A stretch of DNA of 64,000 nucleotides. Origin: Marsupella aquatica. Taxonomy: Eukaryota; Plantae; Marchantiophyta. Shown in pieces: positions 12,107 through 50,773 of the stretch. The first letter of the stretch is position 1. Each line of letters opens with the position of its first letter. The stretch spans positions 13,511,580-13,575,579 of the forward strand of contig OZ316894.1 in assembly GCA_973895155.1 (NCBI GenBank), read 5' to 3'. Position numbers and translations under genes: made by a program. The notes beneath the pieces are model-generated. The model ran no database searches. It worked only from the letters and a program-made list of their open reading frames with translations, and was not told the DNA's origin.

Positions 12107-12129
12107 GCTTGTCTCAGACTTGCTCAGCT

Positions 12130-26775: not shown

Positions 26776-27271
26776 CACCACAGGCTAACCCCAATCCGCC
26801 ACCCCGAACCATCGAGAATCACGCAGAACCGATGAGACTTGACCAATCTCAACACACAAACGACGACCTCCCGACATGGCCACACCGACTACCGAACAAA
26901 CGAAGATTCAAACGACGTCAGCAGCCCACCAAAGCAATAGACTGACGACTAGGAGGCGTCCACCCCGTGGCCCGCAGGATTAGGGTAGAAGCGCAAACAG
27001 CTCCTTAAACATAAAGACAGACCACGAGTCTTTAGACACACTAACGAACACATACATAGAGATTACACCCTTTAATTTCCCTTTTGCACACTCAAAGGAC
27101 TTACAGTCAATAACTGGACCCCAACCTATATTATAGTAGTGGCACTCTTTCCATGATGGAAGCATGGTTTTAATGAGACCATACTACATTGGGCCAGACT
27201 ATAGACCATAGGGTTAGCTTTCCCCATCACATGGTTGGCTGTAACACACTCATCACCCAACCAAGGGGGAG

Positions 27272-27440
27272 TGTTATAAGTCATAAACCTAACCCCAGTA
27301 AACTAGACTTACCCTAGTGAATAGGGATAAGAGGTGGTTACATAACCACCACACCTTGTACTACATAGGGAGCCCCCATACTCCCAAATGAAACAGAAGG
27401 TAGTGAGTTTGTTGGCGCACAATATCTATGTCTCTGAATA
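27272..27440 (+). repeat. 3' LTR of Copia
   Basis: After PPT; followed by TSD GAAAT. Confidence 0.95.
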
Positions 27441-28539: not shown

Positions 28540-29676
28540 CTTAGTGGGTAACGAATCTCAGTGAGTAAATTACATGTGGAACAATGTTTCTATATTCCAT
28601 ACCCCCAAACCCAGAGGAATGGTCACTTATCATCACATATGTGCCGCGGTCTCGTTCAATCGTTGGGGAAAAGTCTGATATTCTGGTTGTGTCCCAACCT
28701 GAAGATGATGAGGACCAAGTTTGAGGGGTCTGTGTTTGTGGATATACAGTTACACGGATATATAGTTAGATTTGATCATATGAAGATTTCTCTTCTCGAT
28801 ATAATGGAGAAATATGTGCTTCTCAATTATCAATAAACTTATGTTTTGTAAGTATATCATTTTCAAATGTTGTTTTTCTATATCTCCCCATCCCTACCCC
28901 ACACTCACCACACCTTTTGGTAGACTTTATGCAAAGAAAACTCATGTTGCTTGTAGTCCTCCATCCTCCGTGCTTTCCTAATCCCCCTAGCCTTTCTCCT
29001 TATTACTTGTACCCGCCTCCCTCCTCCTTTCTTTCCTTGTTTGTCCCTCTTATTAAACCCTCCTTCCTCTCCTTGTCCCAACCCCTTTCTATTTCAACCC
29101 TATACTTTCCTTACTTTCCAGCCCTGTCCCCCACTCTTACCTATAGAACCTAGCTTCTCTGCTCCCTCCTAAACCTATATACCCTTAAACCTCCCTCATT
29201 CCCTTGTCCCTCTCTAAACCAATACCCTCCCTCCTTTCCTTTTTTTGGTTTTTTTGTTTGGGAATTTTGCATTTATTCCACGTAAACCCCACGGATGGGG
29301 GGACCAGTAGGCCAAACGGCATCATAAAACCCCAATGCCCAAGGAGGCAAAAACAAGAAAGAGTCTCTCATCAAGGGTCACCAGATCTCTCAAGGATGGG
29401 GAAGCCATTCTTTGAGTGGTCCATGCAACAAGTAACCTCTAGCCCTCCCTCCTTTCCTTGTCCCTCTCTAAATCAATATCCTCCCTAAAACGGGGTATTT
29501 ACAAACGATAGGAACCAGGAAACAGTAACAGCAAACAGTTACTGTTACCAGGAGAAATGAAAAAAAACATGTGATTGAGCTCCATTATTTGGTCAAAAAG
29601 TTTTTAAAAACACCATCAATAAACCCCATTTTCAGTTGTTTTCAATAACACCATCCAATTGTGAAGGAAAGTAAGG

Positions 29677-29972
29677 GCCATTAGAAAAAAGGCGTTGCCA
29701 AAATTTCTGAAGATTACCAGCGCCCAGCGCTAGTATGCTGGCAGGGAAGGGCAAATTTTAGGTATTCCTAAAATAATGAAAAAGATGGAGATTCTACGTA
29801 CCATCAATCGAGAAGAGAACAAGAAACTTAATGGCCATTACAACAAAGGCGTTGCCAAAATTTGCAAAGATTAGCAGCGCCTAGTGCTAGTATGCCGGAA
29901 GGGAAGGGGGAATTTCAGGGCAAAAGATAGAGATTGTACGTGACATCAATCGAGAAGTGAACAGGAAACTCA
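29677..29972. repeat. ~156-bp tandem duplication
   Basis: GGCCATTA..AAAGGCGTTGCCAAAATTT..CATCAATCGAGAAG..GAAACT occurs twice. Confidence 0.85.
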
Positions 29973-30755
29973 ATTTCAAGCATTTCCAACCAAGAGTGGC
30001 CACGATAGACGTTGAATATTTGCAGCGATGGGCGCTACCTTAAATGTCGGACTCCTAGAAATCAATAGTTGCAACATACAATTCAACATCTGCACCTAAA
30101 CACGGAACACAATGAACATAAGCAGCGCTCGGCGCTAGCTCAAATCTTGGAATCAACGAATGACCATGAAAGAACAAGAGAGCCGATCCAAAACTGCAAT
30201 CTTTACTTCCAAAATGGGTCAAAACATATAACCGGTATTACACCAACCGCAGATCATCCCCAAATCAACCCACGACATAACATGAACATAAGCAGCACTT
30301 GGCGCTAGCTTAAATCTAGCTCTCTAAAAAGGAAATCATCACCAACACACTAAAACTGGACCTTCTATCACTGAAAGCACCTCCGGCCCAAGCACCAGAA
30401 TCCCTGTGATTTCCAGTCGTCGTCGAAGCCCGCCGAAGCCCGCCCTGGCCGGTCTATGCTTTTTCTTGACCTGAGCCACACATAACTGGGACGCTGATCC
30501 AAAATGGGCCTAAAGATGTAGTCGGAAATACACGAACTCCAAATCAACCATAGAAGAAATCCCACGGTCCAAGACGGACAAAAGCAGCGCTCGGCGCTAG
30601 CTTAAATGGCGATTAAGGAATAACAAATCGTATGCAAGCCTATGGCCACTGAAGCTTGTGTCACTCAAACCACCTCCGTCCAGAACAACTTTAGCTCTGC
30701 AATTGGCAGTCATCGTCGATGCCCGCCCTAGCCCGTCTATGGTTTTGCTTGAACC

Positions 30756-31161
30756 CTAGACCCCTGAGCCGCACATAAGACGACAAGGGGCGCCAAACTC
30801 TGCATACTGATTCCCGGGGTCTGGAACATTTGTATCAAGGAAGTCAACACGTCCCATTCGCTCTTGCACTCGTCGCTCAATAGGCTGAATACCATCAGCA
30901 GGGTATGACTTCATGAAACAAAAACCGATCAGCAACTGCGCGCAAAGTGTCTCGGTCGTCAGTCCAAGGTATGTTTCTCTCCCCAAGACTAATCGCCTCA
31001 TCATAAGGAAGCGCAAAACGATTCCGGAAAGTCGAGGTCTCGGTGGAAGTGTCACCGTGAACGGACTCGAAGGAGCTAAAGTGACTCTCCTCCGATCGAA
31101 CTCTGGAAGGAGCACAGAAGGCAAGCATTTCCTCCAAAGACATGAGTTCCTTCTTCTCCAT
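30756..31161 (-). other. Possible small frameshifted gene of unknown function
   Basis: Overlapping ORFs 30895-31161 and 30756-31124; acceptor-like TTTGTTTAACAG just upstream of the ATG; no known motif. Confidence 0.3.
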
Positions 31162-31934
31162 CTAGTGGGAACTGTTAAACAAAATCAAGGCTAATGACAA
31201 GACCGGTGTTGTTGAAATGACCCAACTTTGAGAGAGGTTGTGCCTGAAATGACTCGCAAGAGTGACCTAATGGAGAGTTTAGGGTCGGAGATCAGCAAAA
31301 ACGTAACACAACAAGGTTCAACGGAAAAAGGACCATTGAGAAAGACCTACCACAACCTCGGGGGTCTCACTATATGGGGACCTCCCCATCGCCTGCAACG
31401 TTTTTAGGCCTCGGACCCCCTAAAATGTAAGAAAAAAAATATTTTTTAACCCCTATAAAGTTGGAATATTCTTGGAATATTCTAAAAATTGGATTAAAAA
31501 GACCCTAATGTTCTTATAAGTCTCAAAATTGAATTTAAAAGATCCTATTGTTCTTCTACAAAAATTCTTAAGTCTTCCCTTAGAACCAATAAAATGACCC
31601 TATCCTTCGTCGCACGTGATATGCCATTTTTGTGGAAGTGAAACCCCCGAGACCACAACATGTGAGAAAGAGACGATTGTTTTTGGTAACGACAAAATAT
31701 GCGGGGCCATGGAACGGACAAAAGATTCAAAATTCATAATTAGAAAAGTAGACATTTGGGGAGCGCCCGACGCTAGTAAGGGAAATGAGGAATTTAATAC
31801 ATTTTATTATCAATGTAATGTAAACCAATCATAACTGGGATAATAAATACATGTATTTTGATAATAGCGCCCGACACTGGTAAAATCTTAGCCTCAAAAA
31901 TGCTTCATGAATCGGATGATTCCGATTTGGAGCT

Positions 31935-33055
31935 CTATGACCTCTCGGTCAAGACCGCCTCGTCATCTACATACTTGCTCCTACAAATGTTGTCTACATA
32001 AGGATTTTGGACAAATTTTCTATCAACTCCTCTCCGTAGCCGAAGACCTTTGTTTTCCCAAAAAAGAGTCCTCTGATTATCTTCCATTCTTGCAGCGTTC
32101 TCAGCATAAGAGGGTAAAACGAAAGGTTTCTCCAGAGTGACAATTTCAAAATGAGCTACTTTTCTTTTGAGTTTGAAGCGCCTTCTCGTATTCCATTCGG
32201 ACCTGGGTGAGAACAGAAGTTCATCAACCGATTGTATGAATGGATAGCACAAAAGCATTAAGGAACTGGAAAGGAGAAAGAAGCTTACGAGTTTAAGAAC
32301 ATTACTCGGAAGAGTCATCGCTGTCACTTTGGCCAGCGGATTGTTCTTGACCCTTCCCCTCAGGTGTGCCATCCTCATCTTTGTCTGCTGTTGCACCACT
32401 TGACTCATCGTCAGAGTCAAAATTCAGTACAAAACGGAGCTTGTCTCTCCTTTTCTTTTCGAGTGGTTGAATTGGGGGAGGCAAGGTTTCGACTTCCTTT
32501 GGAGAAAGTAGATCTAAAAACACCTTGGAACCAGTTTCAACAAAATCTTTCCTATTCTCCACTCCAATTACAAACCTCCCAGAATAGTCTCTAGCTACAA
32601 AAGAGCTACTCGACCCCACTATCCAATCCATGAAAATATCCCTAGGCCAAGTAATGAGCTCAATCACAGATTGCATGAATCCAACCGACAAACGGGCATT
32701 CCCAGCAAATTCCATCTCAGGTGTTGGATCGACTTTGAGAGAGGGAAGTCCAATTAAATTTGTTATGGAGGGATCTTCCATGACAGACAGAGGTCTAAAC
32801 CTCGAGTCTTTTGGCACCTTCCCTTTTTCAGACACTCAACAAAAGACGTCCAGCCTGAGCATGAAGATCTGAAATATAACCCAAGAATGGTATGTCAATG
32901 GATGCATTCATAAACATTCTTTGAACTGCAAACCAGATGTCACGATGAGAAAAATTTACCTGTTGGTCAGTCTTTGGCGCGTACATTGGAACTGTGGGGT
33001 AATTGTAACGTGCGAGCAAACAGTAGAATTTTTGCTCGCACGGGCAAGATGTCAC
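31935..33055 (-). pseudogene. Degenerate N4C/N6A DNA-methyltransferase-like gene (SAM-binding half)
   Basis: VIELITWPRDIFMDWIVGSSSSFVARDYSGRFVIGVENRKDFVE aligns by eye to the N6_N4_Mtase tail LIE..T.PGD.VLDPF.GSGS..VAA...GR.FIG.E. GT-AG intron 32869-32959 joins ORFs 32828-33055 and 32302-32835 in frame, with one TGA. Confidence 0.65.
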
Positions 33056-33751
33056 CTTGTATTGGGGCCCAAAAACGGTCTGGAATATTCCTCGCTAGCA
33101 TGGAGACCCTGTTCGATCAATAAATATAGACGGCTACCCATGGACGGTTCTAGTCCCGTGAACGCAATAGATCAAAATGACATATCTTCAGGCCAGCGAA
33201 ATCGCTAGTCTAATGATGCCAACACATTGAGCCACTCATACGAGGTACGGTCTCCACGTACAGGCTTCCACATGTGAAAATTCCCACCCGAGGAAGAGTA
33301 ATAACAACAAAGTACTGCGCGATTCCCGCGTGAAAAGAATCAACGTGTCATTACTGCCGAGGAAAGGAGGATTAAGGCCGTTTGGACACTAATTAAGTCA
33401 CTTTCAAGTGAATGGGACACTTACTGTTCGAACCAGACTCGAATCCAAGGCGTCGAACCATCCACTTAAACAAATCCGCTAGCCCAAAAACCACCAGTCT
33501 TCCAAATCATTCTCCCGATCACTTCCACCGCGTCCGACTTGATCTCTTTCATTCGGAACTGCTATCAGTGTTCCAAGTTCTCAACACTCTCCAGATCTAG
33601 TTCAGGTAAGCGCGGGTCTATGCTCTGAGCTGTTTTAAGGGAAGAACTCTCCGACAAGGCATGATATTCATCGTATTTCATCGTGAATACTGTTTCCATT
33701 TGTTGAATCCTGTTATATTTAATCACTGTTTGGTTTCGTAAGTGCAGAGAA

Positions 33752-34180
33752 ATGTCTGGTGTTCCAAGCAATCCTCCTCAGGGGAAATGGTGACTTGAGA
33801 TCCATCGTTACAACCCGGCGACAGATGGCCCGCTTGAAGATGACTCTCCTCCGAAGCAGAAACCCGATGCAAAGACTATGAAGGTCTCCGCCGACAGCAG
33901 TGTCCCAACCGAACTCGGTCAATCTGTTGGATCGTCATCATCATTGAGGAGAACACCTACTCCTCCAAAGTTAATTCCAGCAGCAAAGTCTCCACCAAAG
34001 CCAAAGGTGGATACCACACAGCGCGAGGTTGTATCGAAGAGGAAGAGGCTCGCAGAAGAGGAGCAGTATTGGATTGAGAGGGAGATCTATGACTACTGGA
34101 CTGAGGAACGCCTCGCCTCTTCAGATTACGATTCTGAGTCAGACACTGACTCCGATGCATGGAAGGCGTCCAGCCCCTGA
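33752..34180 (+). pseudogene. Small Ser/Pro-rich, acidic-tailed protein with NLS-like KRKR; one in-frame stop
   Basis: ATG 33752 is in frame with ORF 33878-34180; candidate 5' UTR intron 33606-33747 (GTAAG..TGCAG). Confidence 0.4.
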
Positions 34181-34800
34181 GGGTAGAGTCAGGTTGTGGA
34201 TTTACTGAAATTTTTGTAGTTACAAGCGAACCACATGTCCTGATGTACTTTCAATATGTATGAGAAGTAAAGTTTGGGCGGTCCTTTCATTTCTATGTGT
34301 TTCTCTGGAATGCCATTTTGTACATAGTACTTTTATTTTGAAGTCACTGTTGGACCCTTCCCAGACTAGCGATATCGCTAGTATAGAACTGTGTTCATCT
34401 TCGATAATCAATTCGATCGAGTATTACCACAACAACTTCAGGGAAAACTCCCCCTAAACCCTAAACATCCTGTCACATCCTGTCCTAAATTCCGTTGATC
34501 AGACTAGCGATCTCGCTAGCCAAAAACTGGCGTCGTTTTAATGATCAAACCATGAACTCTATAGAAACTTGTCGATAGGTTAACACGTCTGAAAGTAGGA
34601 TGTTTCTGTCAGGATGCAGCAGACTTCCTAAGACTAGAGAGATCGCTAACCTTAAACAGCAAATGCAAACACCATAAAAGTTACCATTATGGACCTCGCT
34701 AACATTATGATTCACTCGGTGAAAACAGATTGATATTTGTGAAACCACAAACTCGAGTAATCCATCCCACCACCCTATAATTAGCATCTCCAATAAACGA

Positions 34801-37800
34801 CTAGTCCCCTATCTGTAACGGAATTAAACTCCTCACTTCCCCAACAGTCAGAATTGGCTGTTTGACAAGGTCATCCTTCTCTAGGTTGAGTGAAAACTTG
34901 TTTAAATACACCCACAGCAGATGTTTACAAGACATGTATGGTTTCCCTCGTGTATGCCTCTTATAAAAGTCTTCACAAGAACACGAAGGGAAACAACAGA
35001 TTTGCACCCAATATGTGTGCGGAACTTGTGAATCAGTCTCGTGAGTGGTGATCAAGTATCTCCAACCCCATCCATTTCCGGTAGTTACCTTCTCATTTCC
35101 GACAACTCTCATGTATTCTTGTGTAGCGGAAATGATGCGCTTGAGCAACTCTGGAGTATTGCTGAAACGCTGTCTTGCACCCTTACCATTTTGGGTTTTC
35201 AACTGACGGTCCACATTAGTTAGATCAATTCGTTCGGGGAATGAGTTAACATCAATTCGTAGGTTGACCCGATTGGGGGACGGGAACTCTCCAACTTGAT
35301 TTGCATCCACATAGGAGAGTCCACTGATCTGGAATCCTAATCCCAGCAGAAACTCTATCTCGGGATGGGAGAGGCAAGTCCCACGCTGAACCTTGAGCGA
35401 CTCGGGTGGGGGGGGTAGTTGAGCTAGAGTTTTGCATCCTCGGCTCTTGTGACACTTATTATTAGGACATAAGTACAACAACTGGCGATGTGGAGACGAT
35501 AATCGCAACCCATGAATGGCGACTCCAACAATTCCCCCTTGCGCGGACTTACATCCAGTCTCCTTGATGAGATTTCTACATTCATCTCTTCCAAAAACGC
35601 TTTAGTCAACCGACCCGTTGCAAACAGGTCCAGCACCTCTACCGCTCCGCCTGAGATGCCAGGTCCCATAAGGAACATCAACCTCTCGGATGGAAGGGAT
35701 CCTTTGGAGGGCATCCCGATGGTCATCCCCGACATCACACGGAGGTTGAGTCCCCATCTTCACGGTATCATTGACATTACGACTTGCATCATCACCATCA
35801 TCATCTAAAATATGGATAACTCCAGCAGAACAACCTCCGACAGGTGTTGCCGAAGTTGTATTATTTGCTACTTCTGGGTCCGCAGAAGTCTCCGAAACAT
35901 TGACGAAGCGAAATTCAGGATAGAGATTACGCCTTTTTAGTCCTGAAGGAGAAGCTGTTGTGCGTGACACCTTGTCATGTCTGTGGGAGTCATTCTCGTG
36001 GATTACAGCTGAAGCTTTCCCTTTCCTCTTCGTGGATGTTGTTCGGAGATCGCCATGTAATGGAACTGTTCTATAGAATTCATACTTAGCTGAAGACTCA
36101 AGCAAAAGATTTGCTGCCTTTTCGTAAGCATCCATGGATCCCATAGCATCGGCGTTCCTATATGCTAATTCAAAAATGGTCGGCCCCTAGCCTCTGTGAA
36201 CACCTTCACTGTAGGCAGTAAAAGCAGCAATTTGCCCCGCAGCACGATTCTGGTCCACCTCACATGCTTCAATCAATCCCACTAGTTTCTTCATTTGGCA
36301 GGATCTCATGGATGCATGGACTGATTCCGCTCCAGTACAATTTGGCATCAAGGCTGACTCCATTGCGGTTTGCGTCTGCAAAAAAGTAGTCCACAGTCAG
36401 ACCTGATATGCTAGCGAGGTCGCTAGCAAAAACAATGATGTCAAAGAGAAATGAAATTGGACACTTACAACGTGGATGAAGTTCCCCCACTGCCTCCACC
36501 TCACGACCCACCAAGATAACCATCCTTGGAGAGACTTCAATTTCCCAGCATAGCAGTTTCCTTCCTTCCACCAACGATGGATTTCGTCAGCAACACGGTA
36601 GGCCTGAACATATGTTGGTGCTGTTCTCAGCCTTTCCCACAGTTTATAGTGCTCTCGATGGCGATCTTCCCAAATACCCTCCAATGTGTGACGACGAAGA
36701 GATTGAGCAAAGTGAAAGGCGTCACTGTGCTCCTTCTGTGGGTGACGGACACCTCCAAAAAAAACATTTCGAATGGCGATCCATCCAGCCTCGGCATTAT
36801 CGGCAATAAATCCTCCAATGAGTGGGTCATGCACATCATGATCAGAGGCAACTTCAATCATATATCTCCATGCGGTTTCAAGAGATAAGGAGTCCTCCGC
36901 ACGGAGCTCACAAGTGAAGATGGTACAAAGGGACCTGTAATTATGGTCGTACACATGGGCGCTGAAAGTCAGCCACCCAGTGCTTATTCTCCGCATTACA
37001 TCAGAACTGACCCATGCTCCTTCCAGCTCACCTCCACTCTTCATCTGCCTGAGAATATCGACACCAGAACCTGGGCCATTTGTACTCATTTTGAAGACAT
37101 GAGCCCTATCGGTCTTGCTCCCCTGCCCAGGGAAAAGGTACCTCTGAATGTAAGGAAAATTATTCCGTGCTTGCATCTCACGAAGAGAATCCAACTCACC
37201 TTTTTTTGGGTTATCCATTTTCACGCTCCGGAATATGTCCTGGAATTTCTCAACAGTGGACACAACCTTCATCGATTCCCAAATCTCTCTCTCTTCTTCT
37301 TTTGATAGTTCTGAAGAAGACTCTGGATGCAAAAGAGAAACCAGGTTTCCTATAGACTTGTTAAGAACACGCCCTGGCGTACACACGGGATTCGCTTTAT
37401 GAACACCAGAAACTATCTCCTCCGCCTGCTTTTTTGCCAATCGAGATTTCCCCTTCCAAACAACGTGGTCATGGAAACCCATGTGAACAGCCAATCGAGA
37501 CATATGTTTCGCAACATTTGACTCAAGAGACGGCTTAGGATAGACGTACAAAAGCTTAGCCAGACATTCACGGATGCAGAGAGGCCTCTCCTCACAGAAT
37601 CCGCACACCAACCCTCCTTCCTCCACAAGCTCACCAAGATGAAACGGCTCAGTAAATTGTCCCTTTCCTCGGAAAGAAGAGTCATTTTTTGAACCGGTGT
37701 GCTTCAACTTTCTACAGACCAGATTTTGGCATTCAAGTACACTGGCACATCTGACTTTTGACACAGACCAATGATTGCGTGGTTTGAGATTAGCTGAAGT

Positions 37801-38514
37801 TGTGAGAAGTGTTGTCCATGGATAGCCGTCATTATCCCTATCCATGTCCTGAAGACCATATCCTCGACAAAATTGATCTTCCACCGGAGGAAGCTCAAAA
37901 ACGCAGTTTCCGTTGTATGAAGTGGGCAAAGTCTGCACTTGAATCTCCTTCCAATCGTTTCCCCTGCAGAAATTTGCCAACTCGCTTGACCCAGTAATAT
38001 TGAGAAAGGCATCATATGCACTAACTCGATAAAGAACTAGCTGAGATTGAAACTTGTTTTGACTCACTACTTCAAAAATGGATTTCTCATAAGACTTTGT
38101 CGACACAGAAGAGACATCCCTACCCACACTCTCAGGGGAGATGTCAATAATTTCTGGTACTGCAGGTGACGAGCGAGTCGGGGATTCTGGATCGGAAACA
38201 TTGATATGTGCAATGTCATCCTTACATGAGACTAGCTCTACATCTGAACCACACTTCAGGTCCCAAGCTCTTTCTGGCAATATTCCTGAACCATTATCCG
38301 ACACCTCGTGACTCCTGGATCCATCCCGAGAGTAAAGAACGAACAACTTCCACATGAAATCATCTTTCAAAAGCCCAAACCTCGATGAGAGAAAAGACTC
38401 CTTTACAGAGATAATAGTATTCTCCGGAACATCCAGAACAACAACATCACCCGTCGTCTTTCTCTCGATCACAACCTTCGATCCCAATGAAGACATGCTG
38501 GAAGTTTTGGACAT
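34801..38514 (-). pseudogene. Mutator-like transposase (~1200 codons): GCM-like Zn domain, MULE DDE core, C-terminal SWIM finger; 1 intron, 2 in-frame stops
   Basis: DGYPW..VRCASVLEC..C..CGFC..C..GFHDH; WVSSDV..GFIADNAEA..DAFH; intron 36376-36468 leads in phase 0 to PNCTGAESVHASM (catalytic E); same frame through stops at 36187 and 35602 to CSCEDF..CKH (SWIM). Confidence 0.85.
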
Positions 38515-38690
38515 TACAGTCTACAACAATCCCCAATGTGAGATACTTCGCTCTCTTCTTTCTCCAAATACACATGAGGAAACGAGCTTGTGTAGGTGTT
38601 GGACTCAACGTATTTATTTAATAAATACCTCTTATTCCCGTTATCTGACCGTTATTTTGTCTTATATGACACTATTTGCGGAATGATAAA

Positions 38691-38803
38691 GCTAGCGATC
38701 TCGCTAGCTCAATGAACCAAGTAAAATTGTTCAAATCCTTACAAAACACCCTTTAGGACTTCATGTATTTAGTGGTCATTTTTTGGCTAGCGATGTCGCT
38801 AGC
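38691..38803. promoter_or_regulatory. Pair of 18-bp palindromes in the divergent transposase/ParB intergenic region
   Basis: GCTAGCGATCTCGCTAGC 38691-38708 and GCTAGCGATGTCGCTAGC 38786-38803. Function inferred. Confidence 0.6.
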
Positions 38804-39188
38804 AAAAATATTTCCTCATAAGAGACCATTGTGACCGTTTATATCCGTTGGAATTGGTCAACGGGTACCTATATGTCAACGGTACGGTACAGTACCGGAC
38901 ACCTGTCTCTTTGTCATTAGATACTTTTCTTTCAGTCGTGAGTTCGGTGGTTCGTATTTCCGGAAGTACATGTATACCTGACGGTGTCTGAAAAATGATT
39001 GCGAGAAGAGTCGTACAGAATATTTGTATCTCTTTTCACGACCGGGCGCAGCATTCAGGTGAAAGCAACAGACGAGGGTACGATTCTGTCTTTGATTGGA
39101 AGATCGATTCTCGGGTTTTTTATGTTCGCAAAGCGTGTCGCCCTCGACCTTGACCTGTTCATACCCTTATCACTTCACGGACCCCCTG

Positions 39189-41132
39189 ATGGAGCCATTG
39201 TCTTCACCCAAGAGCTTGTCATCAATAGGATCGTTCAAGTCAGTCGAGTCAAGCCGAAGGGAGACCAGGTCTACAGTGAACAAGAAGGCGCTCCAGGCGG
39301 GATTGAAAACACCGAGGAGGCCCAAGACGGTGAACCAAGTAGATGTCGTGAATCCAACGTTTCAACCTGGAGCTTCAGAACCCTATTCTGTTGTCATCAA
39401 TCGCCATCTTTTCCCTTTTGGAAATGATGAATTTGGATTCCCGCTCGCTCCTCCAAGGATTCCCCTTTGCAGAATGCAAAACATGCAGATCGTTCGGTCC
39501 TTGCAAACTAACTCGACTGCAATCGAGACACTCAAGAATGAATTCCGGATGCAGGGATACATCGAAGATGCGCCTCGATTTTACGTCCAAATGACCGATG
39601 AAGATGGCCTTGTCCAGATGTGCGAGGATGTGATTCGGGAGTCGTGGGATGACATGTGGATTCTTCAGAATGAAGAATTCGAGAGGGAATGTGATTCTCA
39701 CGAAGCTTTCAAAATTTTGAAAGACAAAATGTTCTGTGTTTTCGATGGAAATCATCGTCTGTACTCATGGATGCAACTTGCGGACGAGAATCCCCATGAT
39801 GTCAAATATCATCCTCGAGTTGTTTGCCGAATTTTCAAGGGTGACAAGAACTCATTCGTGCAGATTGAGTCGGCAATGCATGCGCTGAATAGGTTTGTTT
39901 CTTTTCCTTCAAGCTGTGAATTGTATATAAAATTCTTTCATTTCCTCTTGTTAGCGATCTCGCTGACCTGGCTCTTTTGTTCAGGTTGACTCAATGTCAC
40001 GTTGAGAATTCTTGGGTCCTTGAAGCAGAGAGAGTCCACAAGGTTCTCAGTAATGACCTTTCTGTATACAAAGATATCATCGATGCAGACAACTACAAAC
40101 TTTTCCAGCAGAAGATGGCAAATATCAGGAAACCGGCTTGGTATTCGAAGAACATGACACTCGATGCCTGCACGTACATTCTGTCTGCTGCTAATATTGC
40201 AGCGCAGACGAAAGATTTGAAGAAGAAGTTTCAGTTGAAAGAAGCGCAAGGAGAACCTCTTTCAAAAGCTACGCAAGACATGGCAGTCAAAGACATGATG
40301 AAGGAGCAACTGGCAGATTGGAATGTGAAGGTGCCAAAGATTGGACCTCTCCTGAATCCTGAGTTTGGTGACTTTTTCCAGAAGTGTGTTGAGATGCACA
40401 ACTACTGCGAACATGAGAGGAAGGAGGCCCAACGAACAGACGATAAAGGAAGGGGTAATGTGTCATGTGGTCTCGATCATGCGAGGCTATTTACGGGTGT
40501 CTCGTCGTTGACTCCCCAGCTCAGATGTGTACTCCTCGAGGCACAATGCAGACCTGAGCTTAGCAAGAAGTACTTCCACCCTGGTCAATTCTCGGACAGC
40601 GAAACAAAACTTTGGCTTCACCGATGGGCTGTATGGGAGCAGGTTGAGTCAATTTGTTCTTCGCTCATGTCTGAGATTATTTCAGAGTTGATCCCAACTG
40701 TTCCAGATGCAAGGATCCTTACTTCGTCTGAGAAGACAAAGCCATCGCTGATCCTTGACATAGAGGAGGACTTTGAAGATTTCCAAACGAGAGTGAAATC
40801 TTGTTTTTTCAAACAGATTTGGCCACCAAAGTCGGGTGAGAAGATTGACATCTCACTTTTTCGGAGGAGGGCAAAGAGATATACGTATCGTTTTTTTGTG
40901 GATAGAGAAGTTGCTGACAAAACATATTGGTGGTCCTATCCTGCTTGCTTCTCGCCTTGGATAGCAGGAGTAAAAGAGGATCCGACCTCCGTTAAATATG
41001 GAGAGTACTCGATGTACCCATGTGAGGGAGTGGAGGCTCCAAGGAAGATGAGTGAGTGGGAAGTCCTTCACTGTCCATGGTATTTAGAATCAGACAAATG
41101 GGCAGTGACATTTGACACAGCAGAGAAGGCAG
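39189..41132 (+). CDS. ParB/sulfiredoxin-like N-terminal domain protein, spliced, 3'-truncated by an LTR
   Basis: IVRSLQ..AIETLKNEFRMQGY and FCVFDGNHRLYSW (39744-39758 encodes DGNHR). Intron 39893-39984 joins ORFs 39096-39989 and 39977-41158 in frame; no stops before the LTR at 41133. Confidence 0.75.
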
Positions 41133-44100
41133 TGTCACGTCATCGGCTGCGACCTTAACTCAGACTTCAGCTTAGACGGGCACATCCCTCGTAAACCTGA
41201 GGGTTTGGGCAGGAAGGGAAGCACGTAATGCACCTTATTCTCGTAAACTAGCGCTAAGTACGCATACTGCTAAATACGGACACCTCCTAGGTATGGTTTG
41301 TGTTCCGCCGCCGGAACGTACCTTAGTCGATAGCAGGATCGACCCCGGCTTAAGGGCTTCTAAGCCTTTGTGCTGTCCGCCTTTGATCCGGATTCGATGA
41401 TACAGGTCCTCAACCCGTGCTCGCAACCACTTACCCGCAGGCTGCACCCTGTGCACGTCTCGGGTAGTGCGTTCGGCCTGGCACTGCCACCTATATACGA
41501 GAAACCCACACACATACACGCGCACATGCATACAATCTCAATTTACACGAAGGAAAATGATGGGAAAAGATTTTACTACAAAGGGAACATACGCGTACAC
41601 TTAGTTGACCCGACAGCCCCGGAATGAACAGGTTCAAGGCCGAGGGTGCACACTACAACGGAGCCCGGCTCCGCACTCGCCCGACGAGCTTAGTCCTACC
41701 CCCTCCCCTTGGTACTCTTTCATTCCCAGAGGTCGGGACTCCCCGCACATACCGCGGACGCCCAACTCTGCAACTAAAAACCCCCCCTCCTCTACCGAGG
41801 GGTGCACTAAATACTAAGGGACGAGGGATGGGGTGTCCTCTCGCCGAAGATTTGCTGACTAAGGTCCTAACTAAGCTGACAGTCAGGCCGGAAAACGTCT
41901 GTGTCTTATTAGAAGATCCTAATCTACGCAGGCTGGACAACACGGCAGCGCTATTGTACCTAAGGCAGGTGCCTGTCCCAAGAGCCTGACTAAGCCAGTC
42001 CTAATCCTAATCTATTCCTACTCCGCTGCTAATGCCTGGCACGCTTGCCAGAGCCGCCCGAATGGGAGCGGCCATCCCGCTGCCTTCGAAGCCTGTCATT
42101 GTCCGCCTTGAGGAGCTGGACCTGGTCCATCAGAGATTCGTTCTCTCGCCTCGCCGCGTCCGTCTCCTCTGCTGCCTCCTGACAAGCCTCCTCCAGCTGC
42201 TGGGCGTCACTTGTCAGTTTATCCGCCAGCTGGTCCTGCTTCTCGGCCTCGGTTTGGAGCCGCGCCACCTCGGCCTGCAGCGTGGCTATCTCCACCGTGT
42301 CCCGTTGGGCCCGTTCCTCGGCCTCCTCCAGGTCTTTCTGCCAAGTGACAGTTTGATTCTTCAAACTGTCAATCTGGTTCCGGAGTCGTGTAATCTCGGC
42401 CTCGTTCCCAGCTTTGGCCTGTTCGGCTAGGGCGGTAAGAGCGTGCGCCTTTGCTAACAACTCATCGGTGGCTGCAACCTTGGGTCGTAGTTGCCAAAGC
42501 TCAGCCTCTTGAGCCGCAACTTCATTCTTTAGGTACACGGACTCCACCCGGTACCGCTCTATCCTCTGAAGGGCCTCTGACTGGGCCCGACCTGCCTTTA
42601 CTGCGGCAACCAACTCCTGATTGAAGAAACAGGCTACCTTCCGGGCCATGAACTCCCCGGTATCCCGGGCAATCTGATGAGAGAAATCTCCCAGAAGCCC
42701 GTTCAGAAATGTACCCGGTACAAAGAGTTCCGGGTGGTCCAAGTTGTGCCTGTCCAGAGTTGGGCACGGGCAGACGTCAACACGCGCGGGGGCCGGGGCA
42801 GTGACGTCCAGCCCTGGGGACGTAACGTTGGAAGGGGCTGGACTGTCCTCCTGTAGCAATGTCCGGTTCTCCGGAATAGCCACCGGTGGGTCTTTGGGAG
42901 AACCGGGTTCGGGTAAGACCTCCGCCGTACCAACTTTTGTACTTAGCCCGGCCTGTTGGGTCGCATCAACGGTTGCGACACCCGACCCATCCGGTACCTC
43001 CTCGGTTACGACTACAGCTACTTGTGGAGGTGGGGTGGGTGAAGCTGGCGTGTCCGCTGGACTTCGGGCCTCGGGTTGGGGCCGCCTCTCCAAGGCCGGG
43101 AAAACCCACCTAGCTGGGACCAGCTTTGTAACGTTGACACGGGGAAGGGTTCGTCGATCAAACCGGGCGTACCACTCAAGAATGATCTCGATGTGGCTAG
43201 CAAAATACGCCTTCCCACCAATGTACAGCGTCTTCCTTCGCCGCTCCATCTCTTCATGGAATTTCTTAGCGAAGTACAACGCCCACCTCCTAGTTGGATA
43301 GTTCTCGACCTGGATAACCTGGGCGGCGGAGATCTCCCCCCGGGGTTCCATCATGTGGAGGGCGTACCTCTGGAACTCCAGTCGCTCAGCTATCTTGGGG
43401 ATGAGGCAGGTCTTCATCACGAACCCGTTGTCCACTGCTCCCTCTACGGGAAAACTTGAAGATTGGTACTTGGCTCCCTTGCCCCCGGGAGCCCGTGATT
43501 CGACTCGATGGTCACCTTCGGGTAACCCGAAGATCATCCTGAGCCGTTCTTCCGTGAGGGACATACTCCTTCCCCGCAGCCGAGTATGTTGACGCGCGTC
43601 GTCATAATTCGTGACGAACTCCGTCATGTCCTCCCCATAGTACCTGCAAGTGTTCCTGGGGAGGGAGGCGAGGTGCTCGAATCCCTGAGTCTTCAGGTAC
43701 ACCGCATGCTTGGGATGGAGGATGTTTTTGTGAACATTTTCCCCCATGCGGTGCATCGTCACCTTGGCCACGGCTATCGTGGCCAACGGTAACCCGGATG
43801 CAGTGGCGGATTCCTTCCTCTTCTTCCCCGTGACTGGCTCAGGGAAGGTGACACCTCCCCATCCTCCCGATCGGGCCTGGGTAGTGCCACTGCCGTTAGT
43901 AACGGGCCCGGGTCGGCCACGGTCACCATGTTGTCTGCCGGGGCCGCTTCTGGGGTCAGAGCAAGGGTTGGGGACGATATAGTGTCGGCCCCCTGAGCGC
44001 TTGCTCCTCTGGGCCGCCTGGTCAAGGGTAGGGTAGCCTCGTCGTCATCGCTAAGATCCACAGCGTTGATGACGGAGTGTACTTGTGCTGGCTGGGCGAT

Positions 44101-44724
44101 CGGTGGTGGGGTTTGGCTAGGCTGCGGCTGAGGCTGAAGTTGAAGCTGAGCCTGAGGTTGTATGGGTACGGGTACGGGTATGGGTACGACTGAGTTGGTC
44201 ATGTTGGTTGCTGGCCGAGTTCCTATGAAACTCTGTAGGTGCTCGTAGAAGTTCTCCGAAGCAAGTGCAGACGACCTTGTCGAACGGGTAGTGCTGGACT
44301 CGCTGTTGATGATAGCCCGAACCTGAGCAGGGATGTGGTCGAAGCTGGCGTGTGGACTGATGGACTGGTGCACTACAAAGGGTTGGCTCCCCTTTTATAC
44401 CTTGAGGGCTTGTCGATCCCCCGACGTCTCCTCGACGCCCATAGGCTGAACCGCTCACGCTTGTGGTGTGCCGGCCACTCCGCCGGTCTGAGTCAGCGCG
44501 TGTCAGTGGCCGCTTCCTTAAGTTTGTTATACGGACCCGAGGGAGGGGCCCCTCCACGCTCGTAACCCGGGTGTGCGAATAGCGACCAGCCGCCAGTCCG
44601 AACCTGAATTCCCCCTTATTGCCTAATGATATCCTACCCATAATGATTATCTAAATATTGTCGTTATGCTAATAATAGCGGTCTAAGACACTCCTAACGC
44701 GCGTGCCGAGCGCAGTTAGACCGA
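41133..44724 (-). repeat. 3' LTR (379-bp internal deletion; inner terminus missing)
   Basis: Matches 50774-54773 apart from the deletion at GGTCGAAG (44337-44344) and loss of the last ~34 bp. Confidence 0.9.
42029..43786 (-). CDS. LTR-embedded accessory protein, 585-codon open segment (plant-transposon-protein-like domain plus coiled coil)
   Basis: GFEHLASLP..MTEFVTNYD..TRLRGRSMSLTEERLRMIFGLPEG and a C-terminal heptad-rich region; N-terminal part disrupted upstream. Confidence 0.75.
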   Translation of the reverse strand: MATIAVAKVTMHRMGENVHKNILHPKHAVYLKTQGFEHLASLPRNTCRYYGEDMTEFVTNYDDARQHTRLRGRSMSLTEERLRMIFGLPEGDHRVESRAPGGKGAKYQSSSFPVEGAVDNGFVMKTCLIPKIAERLEFQRYALHMMEPRGEISAAQVIQVENYPTRRWALYFAKKFHEEMERRRKTLYIGGKAYFASHIEIILEWYARFDRRTLPRVNVTKLVPARWVFPALERRPQPEARSPADTPASPTPPPQVAVVVTEEVPDGSGVATVDATQQAGLSTKVGTAEVLPEPGSPKDPPVAIPENRTLLQEDSPAPSNVTSPGLDVTAPAPARVDVCPCPTLDRHNLDHPELFVPGTFLNGLLGDFSHQIARDTGEFMARKVACFFNQELVAAVKAGRAQSEALQRIERYRVESVYLKNEVAAQEAELWQLRPKVAATDELLAKAHALTALAEQAKAGNEAEITRLRNQIDSLKNQTVTWQKDLEEAEERAQRDTVEIATLQAEVARLQTEAEKQDQLADKLTSDAQQLEEACQEAAEETDAARRENESLMDQVQLLKADNDRLRRQRDGRSHSGGSGKRARH

Positions 44725-47700
44725 GGCGTCGTCATCTTGATGGTGGTACTTTTTTACACGATCGTAGCTGATTCGTGTGGGGAGTAAATCGCCGGCATAC
44801 GTCGCAAGCTCCAAAGATCCGTTACGGTAGATCTGATTGACAAGGAAGGGCCCTAACCACCGGGTATGAAGCTTCCCTGGAAACTACATGTACCTACTAT
44901 CGTACAGAAGGACTAGATCGCCTGCCACGACGTCGACCCTCCGTAGTCCTTTGTCGTGCTGCTTCTTCGAAGTTGCCTGTTTCTTCACGGCGTGTCGAGC
45001 TGCTAGTAGCCATGCTTCTTCCAAGGCTTCAATCTGATAAGCTCGGTCTGACAAACTTTCAGATTCAGGTAAGCAATCCCGAATGCTGACTCGTGGAGTG
45101 TGTACTTCAAACTTGACGGGCACTAACGAATGTTGGCCGAACACAAGAAAGTACGGGCTGTGACTCGTAGTAGTTTTGTAAGCGAGATTATACGAGTACA
45201 CCGCTGCGTATAACTTATCATCCCAATCCGTTTTGTGCGCAACTACAGTTTTGTTGAGGATCTTCCCAATGATACCATTTGCCCTCTCCGCCATCCCGTT
45301 GGCTTTAGGATGATACGGGGTAGTCTTGCGGTGCTTGACTAGGTAACGCTCCGTAAGCTGGGCTACGGTATCATTGAGGAAGTGGGTTCCACGGTCGCTT
45401 ACCAATTCTAAGGGCGGGCCGAATCGGGTGAAAATCTGTTCCTATAAGAATCTGGCACTGGTTGCGGCATCGTCCTTTACCGTAGCCCGTGCTTCGACCC
45501 ACTTGGTGGAGTAATCAATAGCTAGTAGGATGTACCTGCATCTTTGCCTTCGGGTAACGGGAGTAAATGGCCCGATATAATCAATTCCCCATTTTTTGAA
45601 TGGTGCCAATGGGAGCACAGATGTGAGCGAGTGATGATGAGCCCGTCTTGGGGCCCCAGCCCGCTGACACAGGTCACAGCCCTTAATGAAGCGCTGTACA
45701 TCCCGATGCAACGTCGGCCACCAATACCCCGAGTCCAGAATCTTTCGGGCTATCGTGACCGCCGCGAAATGGCCTCCAGCTTCTTCTTCATGCAAGGCCC
45801 GCATCACGATAAGCGTCTCCTTATACTCCAAGCAGCGTCATAACTTCCCATTAACTCCTTCCTTATGTAGGTGACCCTGTACCATGACGTAAGGCCCGGC
45901 TTTCTGTAGAAACACAGCGGCGGCCTCCTGATTGATGCCGTCAGGGATGCAGCCTGTTAAAAGGAAGGTGATTATCGAGCCGTACCACGTTGGTGTCCCC
46001 TCCCCTACGTGGAACAACTCCTCATCCGGAAAAATATCATCAATTGGCTGATCGACTGGTATGCCGTCCAACCGTGAAAAGAAGTCGGCATTGAGGTATG
46101 CCTTTCCTGGCCGAACCCGAACTTCGTAGTTAAATTCCTGGAGAAGTAGCACCCAACGGGCTATCCGTCCCGTTACGTCTGCTTTGTTGACCATGTACTT
46201 CAGGCTGTCGTGATCCGTGTGGAAGATGACCTTGTAGCCGAGCAGATAGTGCCGGAACTTCTTACATGAGTAGATTATGCCCAGTGCCTCTCGATCCGTG
46301 GGGGAATAATTTTTTTCGGCTGTGAATAATTGTCGGCTAGCCAAGTAGATGGGGTGATCGCGTCCGTCTATATCAAGCTGACTAAGCACAGACCCGATAC
46401 AGAACCCTGACACGTCAACATACACGTGGAACTCCTTCTTCTAGTCTGGAGTGACCATGATAGGTGCGGTGGTGAGTCTTTTACGGAGTTCTTCGAAAGC
46501 AACCCGTCTCCTTGGGGTCTCCTTGATCACCGCATCCTTTTTCATCATCTTTGTTAGGGGCAAAGCTATTTTAGCAAAATCTTTAATGAACCGACGATAA
46601 TACCCTACGCAGCCCAAGAAGGATCGTACTGCTTTTTGATCCACGAGGAACACCACTGCCATCCAGGCCGCAACTTTCTCTTGGTCCACCTCAATGCCCC
46701 GTTTGGACACACGATGCCCGAGTAACACCCCCTCCTCTACCCCGGAGAAGCATTTGGCGGGATGTAGTTTGAGGTTAACATCTCGGCATCGTTGCAACGT
46801 TCGTCTTAGGTGTTCGGGGTGCATGGCAACGGTTCCGAAGATGGCCAAGTCATCGATAAATATCTCCAGAAATTCCCGTAGGAAATCGTGGAAGATATTC
46901 ATCATCAGGCGCTGAAACATGGCCGGGGCGTTACACAGACCAAAAGGCATCCTCCGAAATGCGAAAGTCCCCCACTCCGTCGTGAAAGTTGTTTTGAGCT
47001 GATCCGCGAGGCGAATCCAGATTTGGTTATAACCTGAATACCCGTCAAGAAATGTATAGATTTCATTTCGGGCTACCATATCTAGAACCATATCCGTGAA
47101 TGGTAATGGGTAATGGTCTTTGCGGGTTGCGTCGTTCAGCCTACGGTAGTCCTGACAAATACGAATCTTAGGTTTTCCATCCGTACCTCCCTTCTTGGGT
47201 ACAATGACAATGGGAGAGACCCAGTTGCTGGCCATTACCGGGTAGATGATATCGGCGGTGAGGAGACGATCAATTTCCTCCTTCACTAAGATGGAGTACC
47301 TCGGGTTCATGCGACGTTGTTGCTGCCGTACCGCATGGGCTCCTAGGTTCAGATCGATCGTGTGTTCTCCCAACTCGGGGGAGACGCCTGTTAAATCATG
47401 ATGACTCCATGCAAACACATCTTCATATTCCTTGAGCAAAGCTTGGATGGATTTTTCAGCCTCCCCTGTCAGAGCGTGGCCCAGGTTAAAAGATTTGTCC
47501 ATCCCAATGGTGTACTTCCGGTAGTGCTCCTTCCTGATGACTTCAACCTGGTTTCGCAAGCTCGGGTCCAGGCTCGCATCAAGCTCGGCTAACCGAACTC
47601 CTCCGTACATGGGTGGAACCGGGATTGGTCTCGGGATTGGAGTTACTTCCTCCAATTGCGGAATGGACGGATCCCATGAGACTCGTTTCTTATGTCTCGG

Positions 47701-50649
47701 TCTCGAGTTTTCGGCCTCGGGCGGTTGTTGGGCTGGTTCGTGGTCACGAGGCTCTACAACGGTAGAAGCAGCCTCGGCTCCCTGCTTAGCTGGAGCCGTG
47801 TCCTCCGTCTCAACGAGTTGTTCATGCGTTTCCTCATCCCTGGCAGTAGATGTGCTTGGGGTGGACTCAATGGCAGCCCTCGGGTAATTTAGGAGATGTG
47901 TTTCGCGGGTTGCTTCAACTCCGAAGACATCTTCCTCGGACAGGGACGAGATGAGTTCAATCATATTGAGTTCCTCTTCCTCCGAGGTCTCCGAATCATA
48001 TTCCTTGGGTCCTTGTGGGGTTTCTCCTTGATAATCGTCCATTGCCCATGATACCCGTACGGTGGGTTCCCCGAACCGTAGCTCCTTCTTTCCCCAATCC
48101 GTGACTACGTGGCCACCGTACAGCCAGGGCCTGCCCAGAAGAACCGGGTAAGAGGAGGGACGAACCGGCCTCATAACTAGGAAGTTGAGATAGAACTCCA
48201 CCCCTCCCACCAGAGTGAGCACTCGTGTGAGCGTGCCTAATGGGAGGACCCTTGCCCCGTTTGCTAATCTGATAGCTCGGGCTGTGGGTTGATACGTGAG
48301 GTATCCTAACTTGACTGACGTTTCTTCAGTCATGATGTTGACTCCCGCTCCTCCGTCTACAAGAACCATCTTGATGGTACAATTATTAATTTCGATCGAG
48401 ATGTCTGGCGCTCCAAGGTCCTTGCATATCATGTTGCAGTCCGCGATCCCAACTCGGGGTAGTCTCCTCCTTCGGCGACCCATGAGCAACTCCCTTAGTT
48501 GCCATTTGTACTGTGGGTTGTTCTGCTGCAGTTGCCCCACCGTCGCTATAACCGGGCAACTCTTCACGTCTTCCTTAATATCGTAGTTCTCCTTTTTATC
48601 CTCTTTCGGCTGCAGCTTGGCTTCCTCTTGCTTTTCTTGCTCCTCTTGCTCCTGGCGCCGGGCGGTCTTGGCTGCTTTGATGTCCTTATCGATTGCCTTC
48701 TGGTATTCCCGAGCTTTGTAGGCCTCCAGCTATTTCTTTACCAATTCTTCGATGCGGGGGAAAAATAGCTTAGGGTCGTCCCGTCGGTAGTCATCGTCCT
48801 TCTCCGGGGGTATATCTATTGCTGGCTGCACTGGAGTAGTATCTTGCTTTTTCCTTCGTTTCTCCTCCGTCTTCTCTTCCTTCCGTTCGGCCCTTGTCGA
48901 CACTCGGTAGCACTCGGCCTCATCCAATGGATCAGGGTGCTCTGCTACATCCACCAAATTCACCCACTCGGTGTTGTCATCTTGCCATTCTACAGCAATC
49001 ATTTGGACGACTGCATCGCTCGTGGCTGGTCCAGCCTAGGCCAGTCTAGCTGCGCTCGTTCGAGCAGCGATTACCAACGGACAGTTGGCCCTGGAATGAG
49101 CCTCCGTTTTGTAGACTTGACATAGTGGGGTGCCTCGGCCATCTCCCTGTCGTCTTGGTTCGGTGCATTCCCTTGCAAAGTGTCCTGGCTTTTCATAGTT
49201 ATAACAAACCGGGGATCGCCAAATCCCTGGCTTAGGAGGGATGCTCGGGTTACTGATAACTTGGAAACTCCGGCCATTGTTTGGGTAGGGGTACGCAGTT
49301 CTACCCGCTAAATTACGCGGACCTACCATTGAAATCTGGTACACGGAATCAGGAGGGTCCTCAAAGAAATACTCTATGGACTCTGATTCGGGACCCGGGT
49401 TGTCAACGTCATCCAGCTCTACTTGGTGAACTCGATTCTTCCACCTTGGGCATTCCTGCACCACATGGCAGGATTGGAAGCACTTTGAACACCACGCATG
49501 GGCTCGAATCTGAGATGGCTTCTTCTTCTCCACCGGCTTTTCCGCAAGATGTACTGACAGTGCTTTGAGTCGATCCGTGATTTCGTTCAGCTTGTCTGCT
49601 TCGGCAGCCTTTGGATCTGGTATCATTCTTCGCGCCCGGGGTTTGATCTTCCCCTCCTTCTTCACTCGTCTCTTCTTCTTTTTGCTCTGGCTTTCGCTCT
49701 CCAAGTCACTTCCTGATGAACTGGATGTAGAGGATCCGGTGCTTGAAGCTGAATCCGAACTGGATTCCGTCTCCGAGCTGGACGAGGTCGAACGATGTTT
49801 CTTTTTCTTCTTGCGTTTCTTCTTCCTCTCGTCCGATTCGGAGTCACTGTCACTGAAGGTCTCGTACTTACCCTTCTTGCGGCGTGCTCGCTGGCTCCGC
49901 CGGGAGTTATAGGTGGACTCCCGTTAAGTTTCGGCGCACGCTATGGCCGCCTGCATTGAAATCGGATTATTCTGGCGTACCCAGAATTACGTATTTGTGG
50001 GCAAACCATGAAGGAACCATGTAAGCTGGAGCGCGTCTCCCGGCCTGGGCCGGATCTTGGCCACAAGTTTCTGAAACTTCTGAATGAACTTCCGCAGGGA
50101 CTCCTTCTTTCCCATGCGAAGCTGGCCAATCTTTAATAGAGAACGTTGTTCCGATCCAATGGCACAAAACTCCTGCAGCAATGCAGCTTGGAATTGTGCC
50201 CATGTAGTCCCGGGCGGCAACGAGTTGTACCATGGACGAGCTTCTCCCCGCATCACTCCCGGGAGGACGGTTAGCTTAATGGCGTCTTCCCCATTAGCTT
50301 TAGCAGTGGCTTCAAACTCATCCAACCATTCATCCGGATCATCCCCATGACGCCCCTTGAAAGGTCGATAATGAAATCGCGATCGTTGCAATATTTGTGG
50401 AGGAGCTTGAGCAACACGGGCCATCGGTGGAGCGGCTGCCATAGGTGGTGGTGGTGGTGGTGGTGGTGGTGGCGGTGGAACCGCAGGAGGACAGGTCGAA
50501 CCGGACCCCGAAGGTCCAGGGGGTATGTTCATACGTTGGGGCGAGTGCGAGTCTTCCGAGTCCGAAGAATCGGAACTTGTTGTGGTTGCACTTTCTCGTT
50601 CGCTGGTCAATCTCCTCAAGTAAGCTGCTTGAGAACGAGTGACGGGCAT
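44716..50649 (-). pseudogene. gag-pol: Gypsy gag-pol, single reading frame with multiple premature stops
   Basis: All listed ORF pieces share one frame. Gag FKGRHGDDPDEWLDEF with CCHC knuckles; PR VLVDGGAGVN; RT LDGYSGYNQI, MPFGL, FIDD; RH YVDVS..DREAL..TDH; INT GHF..C..C, WGIDY, SDRGTHF, NGMAER; WLGPF tail. Confidence 0.95.
50443..50477. repeat. (GGT)n microsatellite encoding a poly-Pro tract in gag
   Basis: GGTGGTGGT.. run; PPPPPPPPPPP on the minus strand. Confidence 0.9.
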
Positions 50650-50741
50650 TTACTCATATAAATGTGATGGTTAGTACTACGTCCTGATGTATCCTGCCTA
50701 GGTGAATACGCACATGTCTCCGCTCTACGATATGTAGAGTG

Positions 50742-50760
50742 CCCCCTCCATCTAGCGCCA
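50742..50760 (-). promoter_or_regulatory. Putative primer-binding site, 13 nt from the LTR end
   Basis: Minus strand TGGCGCTAGATGGAGGGGG between the 5' LTR and gag ATG; tRNA identity not determined. Confidence 0.7.
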
Positions 50761-50773
50761 AAAACAAAGGCTA

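Follow-up and report, generated by a model that had tools for sequence, protein, structure and literature searches.

Nested, broken copies of a Mutator-like transposon family with a predicted ParB-methyltransferase fusion gene in the genome of Marsupella aquatica

In the VANDAL elements of Arabidopsis, a group of Mutator-like elements (MULEs), the accessory protein VANC binds subfamily-specific, often tandem motifs located in introns and intergenic DNA, as described for VANDAL21 (PMC5735166). The cytidine triphosphate (CTP)-dependent clamps KorB and ParB, acting at OB and parS sites, respectively, combine a ParB/Srx fold with palindromes carried on the same mobile element (PMC11790492), and phage ParB-terminase loci bring ParB-type and beta-class amino-methyltransferase (MTase) domains together on one mobile element (PMC4738411). 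The latter source also describes ParB-linked MTases of phage origin in algae and fungi, with few such enzymes in land plants. Here we describe a locus that resembles these systems in part, in a 64,000-nt stretch of Marsupella aquatica DNA (Marchantiophyta; assembly GCA_973895155.1, contig OZ316894.1, 13,511,580 to 13,575,579 of the forward strand; hereafter the window, within which all positions are counted). The locus is broken and composite: two elements of many copies, A and B, both decayed, lie one within the other, and A, the main one, belongs to a Mutator-like family with an unusual prokaryote-derived accessory gene. In the family, a transposase gene stands head-to-head with a predicted ParB-MTase fusion gene. 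We give roughly even odds (about 0.5) to this reading as a whole, in which the fusion protein likely binds the element's own palindromes and keeps the element expressed or unsilenced.

Element A (32996-41132) carries a transposase gene, a ParB/Srx-fold gene arranged head-to-head with it and a small open reading frame (ORF). The transposase gene (34801..38514, minus strand, ATG at 38514) comprises 1206 spliced codons with a 93-nt GT-AG intron (36468-36376), and is interrupted by in-frame stops at codons 745 (36187-36189) and 940 (35602-35604). Its conceptual product consists of a Cys/His-rich N-domain, a D-D-DxxH-W-E core and a SWIM-type CxC..CxH end at 34801. We found 11 homologues (30-54% identity), and the alignment keeps both aspartates, DxxH (which reads CSFH in P0027, a full-length homologue), a Trp cluster, the glutamate and the SWIM end, in agreement with the Mutator signature of a DDE triad, a CxxH-type motif and a Trp between the second D and the E (PMC5225508). 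By its motifs the predicted protein is a Mutator/MULE DDE transposase, of a divergent clade because the Pfam MULE and GCM models give no match. Pfam matched neither SWIM nor MULE in the window protein itself; its CSC..CKH aligns with the SWIM domain of P0027, which scores 22.8 bits (cut-off 19.6). Of the GCM-like/MULE/SWIM transposase proposed in an earlier note on this DNA, the Mutator-like core and SWIM end therefore hold, but the GCM likeness, which we take to reflect a Cys/His pattern in the N-domain, was not confirmed, as this domain, with 10 invariant Cys/His residues, had no WRKY-GCM1 match in Pfam or PDB searches.

The ParB/Srx-fold gene, marked by a DGNHR motif (39189..41132, plus strand), is split by a 92-nt phase-2 intron (39893-39984) and reads through 611 stop-free spliced codons from 39207, until a long terminal repeat (LTR) element cuts it at 41132, truncating the right side of element A. 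Among 19 homologous gene calls, the majority stop at the residue of this intron, and gene models from two relatives (L008 and L011, below) have a phase-2 intron there. The first domain was modelled with a predicted local distance difference test score (pLDDT) of 92, and its best structural match was KorB (Z 7.2, root-mean-square deviation 2.6, 91 residues aligned), followed by PadC (Z 6.2), sulfiredoxin (Srx; 5.9), the serine kinase SerK (5.7), SbnI, SspE and Spo0J; Foldseek ranked Srx, ParB and Noc on top, with a best E of 0.095 and none below 0.001. DGNHR and Asn175 (N175) are invariant in all 20 members of the ParB family, 4 of which match TIGR03187 (DGQHR). The modelled fold and the G-x-x-R motif place the protein in the ParB/Srx superfamily, as the earlier note had proposed. 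We presume that DGNHR stands in place of the ParB arginine patch. The structural alignment ends at window residue 175 against KorB residue 146, and Asn146 is needed for CTP hydrolysis by KorB (PMC11790492); judging from the ends of the aligned range alone, Asn175 may correspond to it. The likeness to the KorB and ParB clamps extends to an invariant Arg, within DGNHR, and to this invariant Asn by its place in the alignment, but the protein described here has a long insertion, no identified helix-turn-helix (HTH) and no ParA, and is encoded by an intron-bearing eukaryotic gene. Family searches of exon 2 returned no match, including to the HTH and the C-terminal dimerisation domain of ParB clamps.

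The alignment of the window copy with the L011 model (E 8e-25) extends up to residue 460, and the gene breaks off about 200 codons short of the point at which the MTase-like domain begins in relatives. No continuation of the gene occurs elsewhere in the 64-kb window, and five contigs from public run X3 diverge from the window behind 41132 with the ParB frame still open.

Scanning metagenomes with the ParB alignment yielded 76 loci in 53 clusters at 95% identity, many of them decayed copies. Where at least 5 kb of upstream sequence was available, a transposase lay upstream of ParB in 8/14 clusters, on the opposite strand in 8/8, and where at least 3 kb was available downstream, an MTase-like domain followed on the ParB strand in 14/25 clusters (13 of them at a distance of 2.4-4.1 kb; two of the 14, L008 and L011, had been used to build the MTase profile). 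All three components were present in L029, L056 and L076. For L008 and L011, stop-free ParB-to-MTase gene models of 909 and 927 residues could be built, which are 31% identical over 900 aa, have eight GT-AG introns each in the same phases (2,0,0,0,2,0,0,1), score 709 and 722, where the best of 25 shuffles per model reached no more than 309, and match the MTase family of the window (P0074, E 6e-16). This linkage, orientation and fusion in relatives indicate a family unit predicted to consist of a transposase, a divergent promoter region and a ParB-MTase fusion. The head-to-head linkage and the spliceosomal gene structure noted earlier at this single locus thus recur elsewhere, but the MTase gene, earlier described as separate, is in relatives the C-terminus of the ParB gene. 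Element A's own gene would also have ended in an MTase domain, and the MTase-like exons of element B would be the tail of such a gene. The arrangement varies in places: in L021 a piece of the transposase is found on the downstream side, and a region located downstream of the MTase in four of the set L018, L021, L038, L046 and L052 is inverted in L018 and sits there between the ParB and transposase genes, possibly a second arrangement of the family.

The MTase-like piece of element B (32146..32995, minus strand) is the 3' part of a gene and comprises the last 12 codons of one exon (32995-32960), a 91-nt intron (32959-32869), an exon (32868-32305) with a TGA at 32838 and the S-adenosylmethionine (SAM) loop DWIVGSS, and then, likely, a last intron and a short exon from 32202. 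With introns of 93, 92 and 91 nt, the three main genes bear out the 91-93-bp GT-AG introns claimed for them. Neither the 5' half of the gene, with motif IV, nor any continuation of element B was found elsewhere in the 64 kb. Two candidates for motif IV were discarded by position, DIPF at 32890, inside the 91-nt intron, and NPPF near 33370, in the non-coding arm of element A.

On its own, the exon 32868-32305 matches Pfam N6_N4_Mtase weakly (E=0.008, below the cut-off). A word-based search for longer relatives found none, but HMMER phmmer against 1.84 billion proteins gave 44 matches, mostly at 36-63% identity. They include two proteins from Calypogeia, one from Riccia that is annotated as DNA methylase N-4/N-6, and P0058, a beta-class MTase of prokaryote type; three long matches (P0066, P0067 and P0073) were rejected as repeat-driven chance matches. 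The profile of the family matches M1.HpyAVI and CcrM, and for P0054, modelled at a mean pLDDT of 61, the best match is CcrM, with Z 13.3 and a Foldseek E of 2.6e-7, followed by MboIIA, RsrI, PvuII and rotifer N4CMT. The predicted fold is that of a permuted beta-class MTase (PF01555; motif IV before motif I), which supports the MTase-like gene of the earlier note, although only its 3' part, with the TGA, is present here. For all three proteins, the plant relatives that carry a species name belong to two liverworts, Calypogeia fissa and Riccia sorocarpa, and the family is likely of a liverwort type. Viral contigs and prokaryote genomes were scanned and yielded no relative, and no close phage or prokaryote relative was found; when P0074 was compared with phages by tblastn, four weak MTase matches resulted.

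In the catalytic motif IV of amino-MTases, an aromatic residue stacks the target base. The canonical form, [DNS]PP[YFW], occurs in 0/17 readable copies: 13 loci read DYPE, DIPE, DIPE, DVPS, DVPR, DIPS, DIFR, NIPR, NVPS, NVPG, NFLG, DIPW and DIPW (L052, in which the motif is unreadable, was left out), and four proteins read DPPT, FLPN, FLPN and ALPT. The aromatic residue is missing in 15/17, including the least decayed copies (DYPE, DIPE, DIPE, DPPT, FLPN and ALPT). In the SAM loop (FxGxG) the GxG is kept in 26/35 readable homologues, with the F replaced, and the window copy has GSS, having lost the second glycine. With motif IV non-canonical in all 17, DNA marking by this family is doubtful, and on sequence grounds we consider it rather unlikely that the domain is an active DNA methylase. 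The DNA-marking module proposed earlier is weakened accordingly, though the MTase fold itself is kept.

One may nevertheless suppose that the fusion is an active amino-methyltransferase, directed by its ParB domain to write N4-methylcytosine (4mC) or N6-methyladenine on the element. The entire beta-class fold and the GxG of most readable homologues are retained, most loci keep the Asp/Asn and the Pro of motif IV (L058 and L074 even reading DIPW), and active 4mC enzymes of bacterial origin are described in Marchantia and rotifers. We regard this as improbable, given the motif IV counts and the SAM loop of the window copy, and transposon-borne MTases that are inactive have a precedent in DIRS1 elements (PMC4738411). 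The Marchantia enzymes MpDN4MT1a/b and rotifer N4CMT do resemble this family in that a eukaryote, in one case a liverwort, has a beta-class amino-MTase fold of bacterial type, but MpDN4MT1 keeps TSPPY and both it and N4CMT are described as active host genes, whereas the family here is transposon-borne, ParB-fused and non-canonical. It likewise differs from the phage ParB-terminase loci in that its domains are fused, reside in a plant DNA transposon and have a degenerate motif IV.

The earlier note had read the region as one element with three genes. The evidence at 32995/32996 does not support this and points to two nested elements joined at that position. The left end of element A (32996..33047, plus strand) starts with GGGG and a hairpin, and occurs next to many different flanks: in four public runs compared with 32820-33760, at least 61 contigs have unlike flanks just before 32995-32997 (agreement 0.42-0.57), as would be seen at the end of a transposon. 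In one X4 contig, a foreign flank gives way to sequence that matches the window up to 33109. Conversely, two contigs in X3 and two in X4 track element B to 32991 and then share an alternative sequence that lacks A and in which, read by hand, the MTase-like frame remains open and family-like. The palindromic motifs described below also change type exactly at 32996 (7/7 B-type sites to its left, 8/8 A-type to its right). Together, the end signature, the B-like contigs without A and the motif switch argue that A inserted in the MTase-like gene of B. A short high-copy family of about 70 bp shares the first 52 bases of A, departs at 33047 and reaches a CCCC end about 21 bases on; it probably derives from A's family as a non-autonomous form, and would then reveal what the family's other end looks like.

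A and B are each present in many copies. Contig depths in X1 sum to about 470-1190 across the region, as compared with 10-25 for several single contigs, a measure that is not a copy number. The X1 depth differs little between the left and the right of 32996, so the two elements may have been amplified jointly, and one could go further and propose that they move, or were amplified, as one composite in which the MTase exons are a passenger remnant and the ParB-MTase gene is neutral cargo. Uninterrupted B-like contigs are of low depth in X1, and summed depth there is similar over 29.5-40.9 kb, as such a composite would have it. In X3, however, depth over the transposase and ParB genes is several times that of B, and the invariant catalytic-type residues, intron phases and orientation are kept among proteins that share no more than 25-55% identity, which speaks for prolonged selection on the gene. 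We consider the composite explanation very unlikely.

Each element has its own palindromic motif. In element A, CTAGCGA-NN-TCGCTAG occurs eight times (33193..39966; sites at 33193, 34366, 34504, 34634, 36411, 38692, 38787 and 39951), five times perfectly and three times with 1-3 mismatches. The rest of the 64 kb holds no copy with up to 3 mismatches, and 40 shuffles put the expected number at 0 for <=2 mismatches. All eight sites are non-coding (non-coding share 0.28; p ~3e-5), with 36411 lying in the transposase intron and 39951 in the ParB intron. The B-type motif, AGCGC-NNN-GCGCTAG (29719..31776; <=2 mismatches), has seven sites, at 29719, 29876, 30024, 30124, 30294, 30586 and 31762, with none in element A or the left 29.5 kb and three in the right 22.9 kb. 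The CTAGCG palindromes that had been reported throughout the region are therefore real, but the 16-bp type is confined to the right of 32996, with another type to the left. Other loci have palindromes of their own, repeated at least three times in 5/52 zones near ParB as compared with 0/29 far zones (13 copies in L003, 11 of them upstream of ParB; 5 in L041; 3 each in L002, L017 and L052); their sequences vary by subfamily, and shuffles of four tested sequences reach only 1-2 copies. In placement these motifs resemble those of VANC, and the likeness to VANDAL, an accessory gene with subfamily-specific intronic and intergenic motifs, is one of motif placement. The VANC motifs are direct and 8-9 bp long, whereas those described here are palindromes of 16-20 bp that accompany prokaryotic ParB and MTase folds.

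The palindromes could instead be bound by the zinc-binding N-domain of the transposase, for end pairing or self-activation, leaving the ParB-MTase otherwise employed, e.g., as a nucleotide-dependent transposition helper. This is the main rival to binding by the fusion protein: MULE transposases have WRKY-GCM1 DNA-binding domains and may self-regulate (PMC1702500), the AtMu1 transposase is said in a preprint to activate cognate copies sequence-specifically (10.64898/2026.08.24.746577), the Cys/His residues of the N-domain are invariant, and the B motifs cluster near the left side of B in the manner of subterminal repeats. However, most sites lie between the two genes or in introns (4/8 in A) and not at the known end, in L003 13/13 sites lie away from a known end, and two-fold symmetric sites of 16-20 bp fit a ParB-type dimer, their symmetry matching that of ParB-type operators. 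On balance, we find transposase binding unlikely, albeit worth serious consideration.

The reading we prefer, in which the fusion protein acts on the element's own palindromes, would operate as follows. Element A would have inserted into B, and the exons of B would form the 3' end of a ParB-MTase gene that B itself had carried. The fusion protein would act as a dimer that recognises the palindromes of 16-20 bp, both those within introns and those separating the divergent promoters; its ParB domain would bind nucleotide, and the protein would load at the palindromes and spread from them, as KorB and ParB do. The MTase fold, mostly non-catalytic, may serve DNA or SAM binding, and the outcome would be sequence-specific activation of the element or its shielding from host silencing by 5-methylcytosine, similar to VANC of VANDAL. 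A DNA-loading or anti-silencing role, as the earlier note had suggested, would be a reasonable one. The more specific version is an outright eukaryotic counterpart of ParB-parS: a plant DNA transposon family would have acquired a phage-type ParB-methylase gene, which then gained introns and encodes a nucleotide-driven sliding clamp that coats the element from its subfamily-specific palindromes and de-silences or marks it. This version is tentative and less likely than not.

Several observations weigh against the preferred reading. Transposases are themselves able to bind internal motifs. The fold scores of the ParB domain are middling (best Foldseek E 0.095; Z <8), family searches identified neither an HTH nor another DNA-binding domain in the middle of the protein, and 47/52 loci have no repeated palindrome, most of them being short or decayed. 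The relatives in which the fusion is seen are all distant (25-31% identical), and a ParB domain is absent from the MTase-like proteins annotated in Calypogeia and Riccia; a transposase is missing upstream in 6/14 clusters and the MTase piece in 11/25, while the three loci with all components are 73-78% alike and hence not independent. At the junction, the short family leaving at 33047 supplies part of the end signature, X1 depth is alike on both sides of 32996, and neither a target-site duplication, which spans 8-11 bp in the Mutator superfamily, nor the right end of A was found in the window, which holds the left end only.

A literature search, with supplements (that of PMC4738411 could list such families) and most subscription papers outside its scope, found no description of such an element, nor did it turn up any bryophyte DNA transposon that encodes an accessory protein of prokaryotic origin for its own use. 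If the protein loads at its palindromes, it would be a ParB-type clamp acting on eukaryotic chromatin, and its action would represent a second, independent route to sequence-specific anti-silencing besides VANC. The subfamily-specific pairs of protein and site make this specificity testable by swapping. In addition, beta-class amino-MTase folds travel on liverwort transposons, a possible route for enzymes like the 4mC writers of Marchantia. A connection to fungi is a lead only: DUF3723 is a conserved accessory gene of Starships (10.1101/2021.12.13.472469), eukaryotic mobile elements that differ from this family in being fungal and mobilised by a tyrosine recombinase. The ParB-like domain of P0009 is a feature-neighbour of a DUF3723-bearing cluster (score 0.94, 31% of members), which suggests that fungal DUF3723 may be ParB-like. 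We know of no MTase fusion of Starship DUF3723.

One further candidate relative, L077, proved to be a chance match inside an unrelated phage ORF. This P2-like phage contig carries, at 11654-13756, a reverse-transcriptase ORF and a neighbouring ORF beside a HipA-like ORF, the first two presumably resembling a retron.

The two small ORFs mentioned in the earlier note are both present. That of element A (33752..34180, plus strand) has 142 codons of low complexity, with a TGA at 33791 in the window copy that is not a stop in the public-run contigs compared, and that of element B (30895..31161, minus strand) encodes 88 aa; neither has a family match, and they show no relatedness to each other. The remnant of element B (29504..32995), which comprises the motif arrays, this ORF and the MTase-like 3' exons, also contains a 295-bp miniature inverted-repeat transposable element of very high copy (31357..31651), with terminal inverted repeats starting CTCGGGGGT, an 8-bp target duplication ACCACAAC and a depth about 80x that of its surroundings in X1.

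The eukaryotic DNA of the window is rich in transposons. Elements of the copia and gypsy types flank the locus on either side and lie outside the system described here. On the left, a gypsy-type LTR (28540..29503) cuts element B; it starts with TG at 29503 on the minus strand, its inner limit is approximate and drawn from sequence only, and a gag-like ORF lies further out (28006-28356). On the right, element A is truncated by a gypsy-type LTR retrotransposon (41133..54743; LTRs at about 41133-44728 and 50774-54743). This long-LTR element recurs at 17629-24300 and, inverted, at 54750-56900; each of its 3.6-4-kb LTRs contains a long ORF, of 671 aa in one of the copies, with a coiled-coil end, for which family searches matched coiled-coil only. 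Copia-type elements occupy 3600-6048 and 14769-27440, the latter itself interrupted by the long-LTR gypsy element, and their short LTRs hold the palindrome GGTGGTT-N-AACCACC.

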